The notes below the pieces were generated by a model. It ran no database searches, was not told where the DNA came from, and saw only the letters and a list, made by a program, of their open reading frames with translations. Position numbers and translations under genes: made by a program. DNA of 64,000 bases, taken from positions 192,001 through 256,000 of the forward strand of contig CAVPCT010000001.1 in NCBI GenBank assembly GCA_963702475.1, read 5' to 3'. Every line of letters begins with the position of its first letter. Positions within the stretch are counted from its first letter, which is position 1. The stretch comes from an uncultured Thermoleophilia bacterium (GTDB lineage: Bacteria; Actinomycetota; Thermoleophilia; UBA2241). Below, piece after piece: positions 48,083-54,398 of this stretch.

Positions 48083-49201
48083 TCGACGTCATCCTCGCGA
48101 TCCTCCGCGCGATCCTGTTCGTCGTGATCGCCTACTCGGTGCTCATGGTCGCGGCGCTCGTCAACATCCTGCTGGAGCGCCGCGCCCTGGCCTTCATGCA
48201 GGACCGCCTCGGTCCCAACCGCACCGGCTGGCAGGGCACGCTGCAGAGCGTCGCCGACGCCTTCAAGATGATGGGCAAGGAGGACTTCCGCCCGGCCCTG
48301 GCCGACCCCTTCCTGTTCACCCTCGCGCCGATCATCGTCATGATCGGCGCCGTCGGTGTGCAGCTCGCGCTGCCGTACACCAACGGCCTCACCGGCGCGA
48401 GCCTCGACGTCGGCATCATCTTCATCGTCGCCATCACCGGATTCACGACGCTGGCCATCCTCATCGGAGGCTGGTCGTCACGCAACAAGTTCTCCCTCGT
48501 CGGCGCCCTGCGCGCCGCCGCGCAGATGGTCTCGGTACGAGATCCCCATGATCCTGGGCCTGCTCGTCGTGGCCATGGTCGTCGGCTCGCTCAATCTGAA
48601 CGCGGTCGTGGCGGCGCAGGCGGACTACCAGTGGATCGCCTTCTACGCGCCGTTCACCTTCTTCATCTTCTACGTCGCCTCCATCGCGGAGCTGAACCGC
48701 GGCCCGTTCGACCTTCCCGAAGGCGAGTCGGAGCTCGTGGCCGGCTACGTCACCGAGTACTCGGGCATGCGCTTCGGCATGTTCTACCTCAATGAGTACG
48801 GCGGCCTCACCATCATGTCCATGGTCGCCGTCACGCTGTTCTTCGGCGGGTGGCAGGGCCCCTATTCCGACGCCATCGTGTTCTGGAACGTGTCCTGGCT
48901 CGGCATCGTGTACTTCCTCATCAAGACGTACATCCTGGTGTTCGCCCTCATCTGGATACGCCTGTCGCTGCCGCGACTGCAGGTCGACCAGCTCATGGCG
49001 TTCGCCTGGAAGATCCTCATCCCGCTGGGGCTCGTCAACATCCTCTGCACGGCCGCCATCATGCTGTGGGCGCCGCAGTGGAAGCTGGCCATGGCCGCCT
49101 TCAGCTGGGTCGCCCTGATCGCCTTCGCCGGCCTGTTCGACCCCATCCTCAAACGGCGCCTGCGCAAGCAGCGTGAGCGCCAGCCGGTGGTGAACGTCTG
49201 A
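48079..49201 (+). CDS. nuoH: Complex I subunit H (+1 frameshift near 48535)
   Basis: ERR...QDRLGPN, AAQMVS/YEIP, AELNRGPFDLPEGESELVAG. Confidence 0.92.
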
Positions 49202-49962
49202 TGCTCGGCATGCTGAAGGCCATGCGCACCACGATCGGCCACCTTCCCAAACGCAAGATCACGGTGCAGTACCCGGAGCAGCGCGAGCAGCTCCCGGAGC
49301 GCAGCCGCGGCCTGTTCCGCGTGGTCGTCGATCCGGTGACGGGAGACCCGCGTTGCCGCTCCTGCACGCTCTGCGAGAGCAACTGCCCGGTGCAGGTCAT
49401 CCGCGTGAACCACACCAGCAGGTACAACGTGCCTGTGCCCAACACGGCGCGCATCGCGCAGGTGCGCGTGGAGGCCCAGGCCGACGTGGACATCAAGGCG
49501 CTGCAGCCGGTGCTGGACGACTACTACGAGCACGGCACCGGCCTCATCGCCCTGCTGCAGAACGCGCAGGCGGTGTACGGTTACCTGCCGCGCCTGGTCA
49601 TCCAGGAGATCTCGCTGCAGACCGGCATCTCCCTCAGCCAGATCTACGGTGTGTCGAGCTTCTACAACCAGTTCCGCCTCTCGCCCGTGGGCGAGCACAT
49701 CATCGACGTGTGCCACGGCACGGCCTGCCACGTGGCGGGGGCCGTGCAGATCACCGAGGCGCTGGAGGAGGAGCTCGGGATCCCCGACGGCAAGACCACC
49801 AAGGACATGAAGTTCACGCTGTCGTCCGTGGCCTGCATGGGGGCCTGTTCGCAGGCTCCCGTGATGCGCATCGGCGACAAGACCTACGGCGGCCTCACCC
49901 CTGACAAGACGCGCACCATCATCCGCGACCTCATGGCCGAACTGGGCGCGGAGAAGGGGTGA
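49201..49962 (+). CDS. Fusion of the N-terminal half of NuoI to a NuoE/HydC [2Fe-2S] domain
   Basis: TVQYPEQ...ERSRG...CRSCTLCESNCP (one motif only), then YGYLP, SFYNQF, CHGTACH and ACMGAC. Confidence 0.88.
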   Translation: MLGMLKAMRTTIGHLPKRKITVQYPEQREQLPERSRGLFRVVVDPVTGDPRCRSCTLCESNCPVQVIRVNHTSRYNVPVPNTARIAQVRVEAQADVDIKALQPVLDDYYEHGTGLIALLQNAQAVYGYLPRLVIQEISLQTGISLSQIYGVSSFYNQFRLSPVGEHIIDVCHGTACHVAGAVQITEALEEELGIPDGKTTKDMKFTLSSVACMGACSQAPVMRIGDKTYGGLTPDKTRTIIRDLMAELGAEKG

Positions 49963-49973
49963 CGAGAGACACC

Positions 49974-51911: not shown

Positions 51912-51919
51912 GAGGAGTC

Positions 51920-54398
51920 ATGGCGACGACGGTCGAGAACATCCCGCAGGCCGAGGTCCGCACCGGACCAGGTGCTCGTCACCATCGACGGGCAGGAGGT
52001 GGCGTGCGAGCGCGGCGAGACCATCCTGGAGGCCGCTCGCCGCGTCGGCATCAGCATCCCGACGCTGTGCTACGAGCCGCGGCTGCCGGCCACCGCCGCC
52101 TGCCGCATGTGCATCGTCGAGGTCGAGGGCGCGCGCAAGATGGTGCCCAGCTGCTCCGCCGCCGTCGCCGACGGCATGGTGGTGCGCACCGACACCGAGA
52201 AGATCCGCGCCATGCGGCACCTGTATCTGGAGCTGCTGCTGAGCGACCACAACTCGTTCTGCACGCCGCCCTGCCGCGACGCCTGCCCCACGCACATCAA
52301 GATCCCGCAGTTCCTCGACTACATCTCGCAGCGCGACTACAAGAACGGCGTGCGCAAGCTGCGCGAGGACCTGCCCTTCCCGGGCGTGCTCGGCCGCGTG
52401 TGCCCGCGCCCCTGTGAGGGCCCGTGCCGCCGCCAGCTCGTGGAGGAGCCCATCACCATCTGCCAGCTCCACCGCTTCATGGCCGACGAGACCAGGGACG
52501 AGGAGCAGGAGGGCGAGCTGCTGCTGCCGGTCGAGCCCAAGGCCGACACCGGCAAGCGCATCGCCGTGGTCGGCGGCGGCCCCGCCGGCATGGCCGCCGC
52601 GTTCTACGCGCGGCTCGAGGGCCACTCCGTGAAGATCTTCGAGGCGCTGCCCAAGATCGGCGGCATGCTGCGCTACGGCATCCCCAGCTACCGGATGCCG
52701 CGCGACGTCCTGGACGCCGAGACCAACATCCTCTGGCGGCTGGGCGTGGAGCTCCAGGTCGACAGCCGCCTGGGTGTGGACTACCAGATCGAGGACCTCT
52801 TCGCGCAGGGTTTCGACGCGGTGTTCCTGGCGCTCGGGGCCTTCAACTCCAACGACATGGGCGTCCCCGGCGAGGACGCCCAGGGCGTCGTCACCGCCGT
52901 GGACTTCCTCGGCGAGCTCGAGCTCACGGGCGACGTGCACGTGGGCCGCAAGGTCACCGTGATCGGCGGCGGCTTCACCGCCATGGACGCCTGCCGCACC
53001 AGCATCCGCAAGGGCGCCGCCCAGGTCACCTGCCTCTACCGCCGCTCGCGCAAGGAGATGCCCGCCCATCACACCGAGGTCGACGAGGCCGAGGAGGAGG
53101 GCGTCAAGCTCGAGCTGCTCTGCGCGCCGGTGCGCGTGGTGACCGATGCGGACCACAAGGTCACCGGCATCGAGATGCAGCGCATGGAGCTCGGCGAGCC
53201 CGACGCCTCCGGCCGCCGGCGCCCGGTCCCCGTGGAGGGCAGCGAGTTCATCATCGAGTGCGACCAGATCATCACCGCCATCGGCCAGTTCCCCAAGCTG
53301 GACGGCACCAGCGAGGAACAGGGCGTCAAGCGCACCAAGTGGCGCACCATCGAGGTGGACGACTGGACCTTCCAGACGGAGGATCCGCGCGTGTTCGCCG
53401 GAGGCGACGTCGTGCTCGGCGCGCAGACGGTCATCCAGGCCATCGCCCAGGGCAAGAAGGCCGCGTGGAGCATGGACGCGTACCTGCGCGGCCTCGACAT
53501 GCACGAGGTCTCGGAGTCACTCGGCGAGCTGCGCCGCACGCCGTTCTTCGACGCGCTCTCCGTGAAGGCCGGCATGGACCCGGCCGTCGCGCGCATGGCC
53601 GAGGTGCCGCCCACGTTCATCGACATGACCACCGACATCACGCGCCCCAGCCCGCCGGCCGGGATGCCCAAGCTCGGGCCCGACGAGCGCAAGACCAACT
53701 TCAAGCAGATCGAGCTGGGCTTCCCCGAGGAGGAGGCCGTGCGCGGCGCCGAGCTGTGCCTGCAGTGCTACTGCCCGGCCAGCGGCACCTGCGACCTGCA
53801 GAAGTACTCCATCGAGTACGAGGTCTTCAAGAACCGCTTCCACGGCGGCGAGGCGCACGACTACCCGGCCGACTTCCGTCACGACTTCATCATGCGCGAA
53901 CCCAACCGCTGCATCAGCTGCGGGCGCTGCGTGCGCGTGTGCCGCATGGAGGTCGGCTCGAGCTGCTACGACAACATGGGCCGCGGCTTCGACTCCATCG
54001 TCTCCACCGCCGACAACCTGCCCTTGCAGCTCGTCGGCTGCGTGAGCTGCGGCAAGTGCGCGGAGACGTGCCCCACCGGCTCCATCGAGACCAATCCGCG
54101 GCGTCTGGAGAGCTACGACCTCGACGAGAGCCGCTGCATCTTCTGCGGGGAGTGCGTGGAGGTCTGCCCCTACAACGCGCTCGAACAGACCGACTTCTTC
54201 GAGCTCGCCGACTACAGCCGCACCAAGCTGGCCACGCAGTCGCTGTACGTGCGCGAACCGCGCCCGGTCGACCCGCTGCGCGAGACGCTCAAGGACCTCG
54301 TGCCGCACGTGCTCGACGCCGAGCGCGGCGAGGGCTGGACCTGGGAGCCCATCAAGGACGACCCCATCGTGCTCGACGAGCCGGGAGGCCACCACTGA
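51920..54398 (+). CDS. NuoG-like Fe-S protein with an inserted GltD/NfnB FAD-NADPH domain and the C-terminal half of NuoI (probable +1 frameshift near 51960)
   Basis: [2Fe-2S] PTLC...ACRMC...C; [76 protein letters not shown]...FEL. The ATG at 51920 with a GAGGAG RBS is one base out of frame with 51972..54398. Confidence 0.88.

Follow-up and report, generated by a model that had tools for sequence, protein, structure and literature searches.

The 64,000-nucleotide (nt) stretch analyzed here in full (the window) comes from contig CAVPCT010000001.1 of an uncultured Thermoleophilia bacterium and carries, on its + strand, a complex I (nuo) operon at positions 45452 to 60398. The gene order is nuoA-B-C-D-H, then three unusual genes, then nuoJ-K-L-M-N. 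Based on open reading frames (ORFs), tblastn searches and translation, the complex I core genes nuoA, B, C, D, H, J, K, L, M, and N are all present and in order, and the ORF list gives 13 genes for the nuo cluster. The operon has no standalone nuoI. An earlier interpretation made from the letters alone (the sequence-only reading) had noticed this absence and had proposed that the gene after nuoH starts with the N-terminal half of NuoI and runs into a NuoE domain (a fusion called I'E here; protein P0001), that the gene before nuoJ ends with the C-terminal half of NuoI (G'I; protein P0003), and that the whole NuoE-NuoF-NuoG input module lies between the two halves. Profile searches bear out the absence of nuoI and both fusions, and they change the identity of the inserted module.

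In searches with NCBIfam models, residues 8 to 74 of P0001 match the NuoI model TIGR01971 at model positions 2 to 66 (49.3 bits), and residues 99 to 244 match NuoE models. Residues 706 to 755 of P0003 match the same NuoI model at positions 67 to 116 (whole-protein expectation value [E] of 1.4e-16, 60.2 bits). The two NuoI matches are contiguous in the model and do not overlap, which is the complementary pair of half matches that the sequence-only reading had expected from this model, and a whole-genome profile scan returns the same two pieces. The TIGR01971 cut-off of 113.05 bits is reached by neither half; the sum of the two scores is 109.5 bits. Alignment of the halves to the intact NuoI that this genome also encodes places the break within the turn that separates one Cys motif from the other. 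The NuoI half of P0001 also matches NDUFS8-type chains of solved complex I. On the DNA, the N-terminal half starts at the nuoH stop and the C-terminal half lies on the side of the nuoJ start, and the same bracketing is seen in related loci. Stop and start codons overlap at three boundaries of the inserted genes (TGATG at 49199 to 49203 for nuoH/I'E, GTGA at 49959 to 49962 for I'E/nuoF, and TGATG at 54396 to 54400 for G'I/nuoJ).

Both fusions are in frame, and all eight Cys of NuoI are present, spread over two chains with four Cys and one Pro in each half, as had been read from the sequence. C52, C55, C58, C62, and P63 of P0001 are invariant in 25 aligned I'E proteins, and C722, C725, C728, C732, and P733 of P0003 are invariant in 24 aligned G'I proteins; the aligned homologues in which these residues are invariant reach down to 50 to 64% identity. 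The other cluster ligands are likewise invariant in the two alignments (e.g., C171, C176, C212, and C216 of the NuoE domain). In P0003 the NuoI half starts about 20 residues past the last NfnA-type cluster motif (C700 to C722). The coordinates of all of these features are given in Table 1.

Table 1. Genes of the window's nuo operon and parts of the three proteins encoded between nuoH and nuoJ
Feature	Position	Strand	Evidence
nuoA	45452-45841	+	ORF; tblastn 59-89% identity at operon head in related loci
nuoB (approximate start)	45832-46377	+	Translation; kept in related loci
nuoC	46379-46873	+	ORF; kept in related loci
nuoD, three frames in assembly, 1-nt insertions near 47448 and 47812	46866-48079	+	tblastn with a relative's NuoD: three high-scoring pairs, frames 3, 1, 2
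nuoH, one frameshift near 48540 in assembly	48079-49201	+	Two high-scoring pairs, frames 1 and 2; stop overlaps next ATG
I'E fusion protein P0001, 253 amino acids	49201-49962	+	Profile matches; at least 120 full-length database clusters, 64-91% identity
NuoI N-terminal half, P0001 residues 8-74; CxxCxxCxxxCP (C52 to P63) at 49354-49389	49222-49422	+	TIGR01971 positions 2-66 of 121, E 3.4e-13
NuoE/BfuC-type thioredoxin-like [2Fe-2S] domain, P0001 residues 99-244	49495-49932	+	PF01257, E 6e-47
BfuB-type NuoF homologue P0002, 650 amino acids	49959-51911	+	Pfam, NCBIfam, solved BfuB chains
P0002 N-terminal thioredoxin-like domain	50082-50321	+	Pfam/NCBIfam
P0002 flavin mononucleotide (FMN) domain	50553-51068	+	Pfam/NCBIfam
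P0002 N3-type cluster region	51399-51653	+	Pfam/NCBIfam
P0002 C-terminal 2x[4Fe-4S] domain	51702-51881	+	Pfam/NCBIfam
NfnA-like protein fused to NuoI C-terminal half (G'I), P0003, 808 amino acids	51972-54398	+	Profile matches; 24-homologue alignment
GltD-type domain, P0003 residues 97-507: 2x[4Fe-4S] and flavin adenine dinucleotide (FAD)/NAD(P)H-binding fold	52260-53492	+	PF14691, PF07992; PRK12814 E 2e-187
P0003 all-Cys N5-like site (C596-C607) and HydA/HoxU/Nqo3-type ferredoxin-like domain with two Cys motifs (C647-C657, C690-P701)	53757-54083	+	PF22117 Fer4_Nqo3, residues 639-704
NuoI C-terminal half, P0003 residues 706-755; CxxCxxCxxxCP at 54135-54170	54087-54236	+	TIGR01971 positions 67-116 of 121
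P0003 conserved C-terminal extension, residues 756-808	54237-54395	+	G788, W789, W791, P793 nearly invariant in 24 sequences; no family match seen in Pfam or NCBIfam
nuoJ, ATG overlaps P0003 stop by one base	54398-54913	+	Translation, junction sequence
nuoK	54910-55218	+	ORF; within 1200 nt of G'I end in 39 of 39 loci
nuoL (about 55215-57175), nuoM (57172-58758), nuoN (58758-60398)	55215-60398	+	ORFs; same order in related loci

Upstream of the operon, the minus strand carries ORFs between 41641 and 45265 whose translations we read by eye. The one at 41641 to 43803 presumably encodes a class A penicillin-binding protein with a Pro/Thr-rich tail, and those at 43852 to 44649 and 44657 to 45265 we take to be TatC-like and TatA/E-like, respectively.

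The genes between the NuoI halves had been taken for the whole E-F-G input module, and the "G" among them is not NuoG. P0002 is a NuoF homologue with two extra parts that Pfam detects, an N-terminal thioredoxin-like [2Fe-2S] domain (PF01257 at residues 42 to 121) and a C-terminal 2x[4Fe-4S] domain (Fer4 models at residues 582 to 641). Both are found in BfuB and neither in Nqo1/NuoF. Solved bifurcating BfuB chains cover residues 48 to 636 of P0002, whereas Nqo1 covers only residues 163 to 570; the solved relatives 7t2r_B, 9bov_B, 9n5u_B, and 8oh5_B each match with an E of about 1e-240. Schut et al. (2022; PMC9304861) describe the additional clusters of BfuB as the feature that sets bifurcating Bfu enzymes apart from complex I. 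The NuoE domain of P0001 has the thioredoxin-like [2Fe-2S] domain of BfuC, and its best solved relatives are the NfnC chains 9n5u_C, 9bov_C, and 8oh5_A. The best solved relatives of P0003 are NfnA/StnC chains (9bov_A, E of 1e-186 over residues 2 to 728; 8oh5_C, 5e-163; 9n5u_A, 9e-152). The structures 9BOV and 9BP5 are of Caldicellulosiruptor saccharolyticus NfnABC (PMC11829005), an enzyme type in which the NfnA cluster chain leads from FAD to a distal cluster (PMC12018979).

From N to C terminus, P0003 consists of a HoxU/NuoG-type 2Fe-2S domain, a complete GltD FAD/NAD(P)H domain, the all-Cys N5-like site, the Nqo3-type ferredoxin-like domain, and the C-terminal half of NuoI. All Cys of the N5-like site and of the ferredoxin-like domain are invariant in the 24 sequences. 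It has no NuoG C-terminal domain. The N-terminal 2Fe-2S domain, the inserted GltD FAD/NADP(H) domain, and the HydA/NuoG-like cluster chain are those of an NfnABC/Stn A subunit. Where such a subunit has an Fdh-like C-terminal domain, P0003 ends in the NuoI half and a 53-residue extension. The solved NfnA/StnC chains are 963 to 1178 amino acids long and align to P0003 only up to about residue 728, and the NuoI half occupies the place of their much longer C-terminal part. Based on these domain contents, we conclude that the inserted module is an NfnABC/Stn-type Bfu module and not canonical NuoEFG. Modules of the Bfu type are unusually numerous in this genome: by tblastn, its contigs C3, C5, and C6 carry eight further NuoF-like loci and several GltD-fusion paralogues, a NuoE/NuoF pair lies at C3:612304-614678 (53% and 70% identity), and a P0003-like gene lies at C4:387285-389468 (65% identity over residues 1 to 726).

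The arrangement is conserved. A scan with one genome per species gave 80 related loci, nearly all titled Thermoleophilia, Actinomycetes, or Actinomycetota metagenome-assembled genomes (MAGs), and these were searched by tblastn with the window's nuo proteins, counting matches at ≥40% identity (≥50% for G'I) and using nuoK as the downstream marker. The I'E fusion, including the NuoI N-terminal half, is present in 54 of the 80 loci. In 50 of these 54, nuoH ends ≤60 nt upstream of I'E. The four exceptions are three loci at the edge of a contig and one with a gap of 93 nt. Downstream sequence of ≥5300 nt is available for 39 loci, and every one of them encodes a G'I protein that extends to residue 760 or beyond, with nuoK no more than 1200 nt further on. 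The order H-[I'E]-F-[G'I]-J that had been read from the window is found, as H-[I'E]-F-[G'I]-J/K, in every one of these 39 informative loci. A database search with P0001 returned at least 120 clusters of full-length proteins of about 253 amino acids (64 to 91% identity) from several public sources, one of them named Thermoleophilia bacterium. A search with the 85-residue N-terminal half alone returned a few 50%-identity clusters of the fusion types and then, from an E of about 1e-14, canonical NuoI. The carriers are widespread uncultured Thermoleophilia, and the related records are MAGs of many independent projects.

The distribution across the class was determined in a sample of 121 genomes, with 21 from the window's family (its own genome included), 20 from a second family, and 80 from other families. 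The split N-terminal half is present in 21/21, 19/20, and 0/80 of these, respectively. The sequence-only reading had suggested looking for the same pair of fusions in other genomes, and the split form is found in two families with 40 carriers. A NuoI above the family cut-off is present in 14 of the 40 carriers and the remaining 26 have half-length matches only, in a count for which 33 first-look candidates per genome were scored and which may miss a very divergent intact NuoI. Among the 26 are three genomes with a completeness of 100% and one, with 98%, that consists of a single contig. Since most relatives have no other NuoI, the halves must do the job of NuoI there, and in most carriers the split-NuoI enzyme appears to be the only complex I. 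The assembled genome that contains the window has a size of 4.3 Mb and an estimated contamination of 6.5%, and its genus is otherwise represented mostly by genomes of 1.7 to 3.5 Mb.

Several variants of the cassette occur among the related loci. In the second family (L091:6504-10872 and also loci L090 and L092), a single 600-amino-acid protein combines the NuoI N-terminal half, a remnant of the helical part of NuoE, and a plain NuoF core. It lacks the thioredoxin-like domain, the C-terminal 2x[4Fe-4S] domain, and the NuoE [2Fe-2S] domain. The 833-amino-acid GltD protein of this family still ends in the NuoI C-terminal half and is followed by nuoJ. This form without Bfu-specific clusters argues that the reaction shared by the variants is plain NAD(P)H:quinone oxidoreduction; the window's family, which retains the complete set of bifurcating features, may carry out a ferredoxin-coupled reaction. 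At another locus (L057:10001-14273), the I'E fusion is kept, and part of the GltD region of G'I is swapped for a 2x[4Fe-4S] segment resembling the BfuB C terminus. No nuoF is visible there at the ≥40% tblastn cut-off, though a nuoF-like ORF at 10633 to 12018 is present and strongly diverged in the FMN-site region. In a genome of a third family (L093:6968-8935, minus strand), a 656-amino-acid protein resembles a NuoI in which a GltD FAD/NAD(P)H domain stands between a NuoI-like N terminus, judged by eye, and a core that keeps its two motifs together (TIGR01971 positions 40 to 121, E of 3e-26). The gene adjoins nuoB-C-D, and nuoA, nuoH, and nuoK, the only other ones detected, are on the opposite strand. 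This protein may provide a further route by which NADPH is connected to a complex I of 11 subunits.

Our preferred reading, to which we assign a probability of about 0.7, is that a Bfu module was inserted in the nuoI of an 11-subunit complex I-type quinone reductase and that the two halves re-form NuoI in trans and feed the N2 cluster and menaquinone. The core enzyme would be a proton-pumping quinone reductase composed of NuoA, B, C, D, H, I, J, K, L, M, and N. The NfnABC/Stn-type module, which consists of a BfuC/NuoE-like subunit, an FMN-containing BfuB/NuoF-like subunit, and an NfnA-like subunit with a GltD FAD/NAD(P)H domain, would have entered nuoI in the turn between the two Cys motifs. 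The N-terminal half of NuoI, with its membrane-proximal N terminus and the first CxxCxxCxxxCP motif, would have become the N terminus of the first cassette protein, and the C-terminal half, with the second motif and the C-terminal strand, would have become the C terminus of the last one. Most likely the two halves come together in trans as a single 2x[4Fe-4S] NuoI fold, in which each cluster would be held by three Cys of one polypeptide and one of the other, and the rebuilt domain would sit on NuoB, NuoD, and NuoH as usual. Electrons, we infer, would pass from the NfnA-like cluster chain to the rebuilt NuoI domain, from there to N2 of NuoB, and then to menaquinone, with proton pumping by the core; likely donors are NADH at the FMN and NADPH at the FAD. 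A ferredoxin fold made of two chains is chemically feasible, since designed half-ferredoxins form homodimers that hold two [4Fe-4S] clusters (PMC12648291). With these fusions, enzymes of the bifurcating Bfu type would be joined covalently with a quinone reductase and, through the paralogous cassette, with pyruvate oxidation.

A number of observations weigh against this reading. Besides the divergent intact NuoI that the genome count may miss, they concern the fold itself, the use of the cassette outside the nuo operon, and the state of the window's own operon, and each is given below with the alternative that it favors. For the fold, the sequence-only reading had called for a multimer model. 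The one complex prediction was made with fragments only, P0003 residues 630 to 808 and P0001 residues 1 to 100 together with four 4Fe-4S ligands, and is graded as weak support. Its ipSAE values of 0.36, 0.35, and 0.36 exceed the best of 3 controls (0.00), and the runs agree in ≥57% of contacts, but the partner fold is uncertain (pLDDT of about 50, with ≥49 in all runs). Of 80 solved complexes, 58 reach the mark used, as do 2 of 110 mismatched pairs; those that reach it with an ipSAE of ≤0.60, the range of the present values, are just 7 of the 80 and both of the passing mismatches. In addition, the prediction used custom alignments and riding ligands, unlike the calibration, and since solved NuoI structures exist, the pass may reflect memory.

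P0003 also has three consecutive Cys motifs, and the spacing from C700 to C722 would allow a clostridial-type ferredoxin fold in cis. Pairing of motifs two and three of P0003 is the main rival to assembly in trans. Here the third motif and the one preceding it would form a complete 2x[4Fe-4S] domain, the NuoI role would fall mainly to P0003, and the P0001 motif would pair with the remaining P0003 motif or bind a cluster otherwise. This is consistent with the short spacing, with Pfam models Fer4_7 and Fer4_9, which align over residues 690 to 736 (motifs two and three), and with the second family, in which the TIGR01971 match runs over positions 38 to 117 in one stretch across the P0003-type motifs two and three. 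We nevertheless consider it unlikely. In their spacing and profile matches, motifs one and two correspond to the HydA/HoxU/Nqo3 domain (PF22117 at residues 639 to 704, NfnA alignments over residues 2 to 728), the NuoI-specific flanks are divided exactly between the two proteins (model positions 2 to 66 and 67 to 116), and the invariant P0001 motif and its NuoI N terminus would be unexplained if the motif were orphaned.

The cassette is not specific to the membrane complex. A paralogous copy with both halves lies in the same genome at C5:514327-522611 (plus strand), between porA and porB of an operon for pyruvate:ferredoxin oxidoreductase, a soluble enzyme. The order is porG, porD, porA, a fusion of a NuoI-like N-terminal half and NuoE, a BfuB-like gene, and a protein of about 1050 amino acids in which NfnA-like, NuoI-like C-terminal, and PorB parts are fused. 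The N-terminal half and NuoE are in different frames in this assembly and in one frame in locus L074, which shares the por arrangement, as does locus L088 (61 to 86% identity). Together with the fact that P0002 keeps every bifurcating BfuB feature, the por cassettes of this genome and the two others would fit a soluble module, in which I'E, NuoF, and G'I form an Nfn-type enzyme with its own two-chain ferredoxin domain that acts as a soluble transhydrogenase or ferredoxin-like unit, and the position in nuo reflects co-regulation or loose docking and not replacement of NuoI. This possibility seems to us improbable for the nuo copy, whose halves keep NuoI-specific N- and C-terminal sequence and sit exactly at the place of nuoI. 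Moreover, 26 of 40 carriers have no other NuoI, and without the halves the core complex would miss clusters N6a and N6b.

As to the window's own operon, the genome assembly also contains an intact nuoI (155 bits) in a canonical 14-gene nuoA-N operon on contig C3 (C3:203100-218400, minus strand). The sequence-only reading had named an intact nuoI elsewhere that co-purifies with the complex as counterevidence, and of this the genome copy is present. In addition, nuoD and nuoH of the window are frameshifted in this assembly, with three frameshifts in all: nuoD is read in three frames and nuoH in two, whereas relatives read both in one frame (tblastn). A decaying or redundant operon, in which the insertion broke nuoI and left a relic while respiration runs via the canonical operon, would account for both observations. 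We regard this as very unlikely, given that nuoD and nuoH are single-frame in relatives, that cofactor ligands are invariant over two families, that 26 of 40 carriers have no intact NuoI, and that the inserted bases at 47444/47448 and 47812 are missing from short-read contigs. These comparison sequences are Logan contigs of other sequencing runs, of which the best shares 0.37 of the words of the stretch and none shares half. Runs X1, X2, and X16 yield contigs that are one base shorter than the window at 47444/47448 and at 47812. At 47448 the depth lacking the base is 82.1 of 98.5 in X1 and 22.8 of 22.8 in X2, and at 47812 it is 31.4 of 31.4 in X1 and 16.8 of 16.8 in X16. The nuoD frameshifts thus look like indel errors of a long-read-like nine-contig assembly; for nuoH, the one-frame reading in relatives is the only basis for calling the frameshift an error. 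Compared with the contigs of other runs, the window has single-base insertions at 47444 to 47448, at 47812, and at 51961, the last of which is in the spacer before P0003. These insertions, taken with the frame break in the C5 cassette, suggest uncorrected long-read indel errors across the assembly.

Indel errors and the 6.5% estimated contamination raise the further question of whether the junctions themselves are chimeric products of assembly or binning. We consider such an artefact extremely improbable and reject an assembly chimera on the grounds that all 39 informative loci, which come from many independent assemblies, have these junctions too and that 253-residue I'E proteins form at least 120 database clusters. 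Contigs of other runs also span 49372 to 49580 and 51836 to 52124; among the contig pieces listed, none spans 54000 to 54110. Contigs from the RNA libraries X15 and X16 show about 88 to 95% likeness, and relatives or DNA carry-over are possible sources. An excisable element comparable to the heterocyst gene interruptions was also considered and was rejected because there is no flanking direct repeat at the two junctions and no recombinase gene inside. The only repeat that touches the junctions is the codon-level likeness of the Cys motifs (repeat family D5).

Compared with known systems, the closest parallel at the level of the operon is "Nuo-Bfu," which Schut et al. predicted in 2022, along with "Por-Bfu," in other phyla, with Bfu modules replacing NuoEFG (PMC9304861). 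As in the window, a bifurcating-type BfuBC core replaces NuoEF in the middle of a nuo cluster; the proposed acceptor is menaquinone, and the enzyme is uncharacterized. The published Nuo-Bfu clusters, from Deferribacteres, Proteobacteria, Planctomycetes, and Nitrospirae, are defined by 14 subunits, with BfuABC in place of NuoEFG and a whole NuoI. In contrast, the window's cluster has 13 genes and an Nfn-type A subunit, which contains a GltD domain and lacks the C-terminal domain of NuoG, and its NuoI is split and fused to the module at both ends. Neither "NuoI" nor "Actinobacteria" occurs in the text of PMC9304861. The por cassette has its counterpart in Por-Bfu, and it differs from the published form, which is found mainly in Chloroflexi and Proteobacteria and has separate subunits, in carrying split NuoI-like halves and in the fusion of its last protein to PorB.

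At the level of the proteins, the best or near-best solved relatives of all three are those of NfnABC/StnABC, Bfu-type NADH-dependent ferredoxin:NADP oxidoreductases (9BOV/9BP5, 8OH5, and 9N5U; PMC11829005, PMC12018979), with which they share an A subunit composed of 2Fe-2S, GltD, and cluster chain, a B subunit with extra clusters, and a C subunit with 2Fe-2S. The known enzymes are described in these papers as soluble and using free ferredoxin, and they contain no NuoI sequence; in the window, the A subunit ends in the NuoI C-terminal half instead of the Fdh-like domain and the C subunit starts with the NuoI N-terminal half. With the designed "semidoxins" (PMC12648291) the halves share one CxxCxxCxxxCP half per chain and two chains for two [4Fe-4S] clusters. 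The semidoxins are homodimers of about 30 residues, whereas what we propose is a natural heterodimer of different halves in large subunits.

With canonical NuoI/Nqo9/NDUFS8, the two halves share the TxxYPE...RG N-terminal segment, both CxxCxxCxxxCP motifs, the C-terminal strand, and the position between nuoH and nuoJ, and they differ in that they are on two polypeptides about 4.7 kb apart, neither of which reaches the family cut-off. Canonical NuoI carries clusters N6a and N6b and forms the bridge from NuoG to NuoB. Fusions among complex I core subunits are known. In the 11-subunit complex I-like enzymes without an N-module, the donor docks noncovalently and NuoI is whole; their core gene set and order, A-B-C-D-H-I-J-K-L-M-N, and their lack of canonical nuoEFG are those of the present operon. 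In open-access papers and bioRxiv preprints, we found neither a split NuoI nor a NuoI-NuoE or NfnA-NuoI fusion described, and no account of complex I in Thermoleophilia. The sequence-only reading knew of no description of this architecture; this holds in the open literature searched for the split and the fusions, whereas a Bfu module on complex I had been predicted in 2022 (PMC9304861). As far as the searched literature goes, a core iron-sulfur subunit split around a module, an Nfn-type A subunit on complex I, and the reuse of the split "plug" in a por operon are new.

A wider reading, which we put forward as doubtful though possible, is that the split NuoI is a portable two-chain ferredoxin plug that wires a bifurcating Nfn-Bfu module into both complex I and pyruvate:ferredoxin oxidoreductase, making the nuo copy a four-partner enzyme. 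If this is true, the redox partners of this membrane enzyme would be NADH, NADPH, ferredoxin, and menaquinone, and flavin-based bifurcation or confurcation would be coupled to exergonic quinone reduction and proton pumping. Pumping might, for example, be driven by NAD(P)H together with reduced ferredoxin, or quinone reduction might pull ferredoxin reduction. The locus would, moreover, represent a half-ferredoxin heterodimer of natural origin, in which the ancient duplication and fusion behind the fold have been reversed. To our knowledge, a two-chain 2x[4Fe-4S] fold has so far been shown only with designed peptides, and if the halves share clusters, these enzymes would be a natural test of it. 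For the Thermoleophilia that carry it, the arrangement may be a genetic snapshot of how an 11-subunit, donor-less complex I can gain a dehydrogenase module, and with it the question of the donor of 11-subunit complexes and the Nuo-Bfu hypothesis would become testable.

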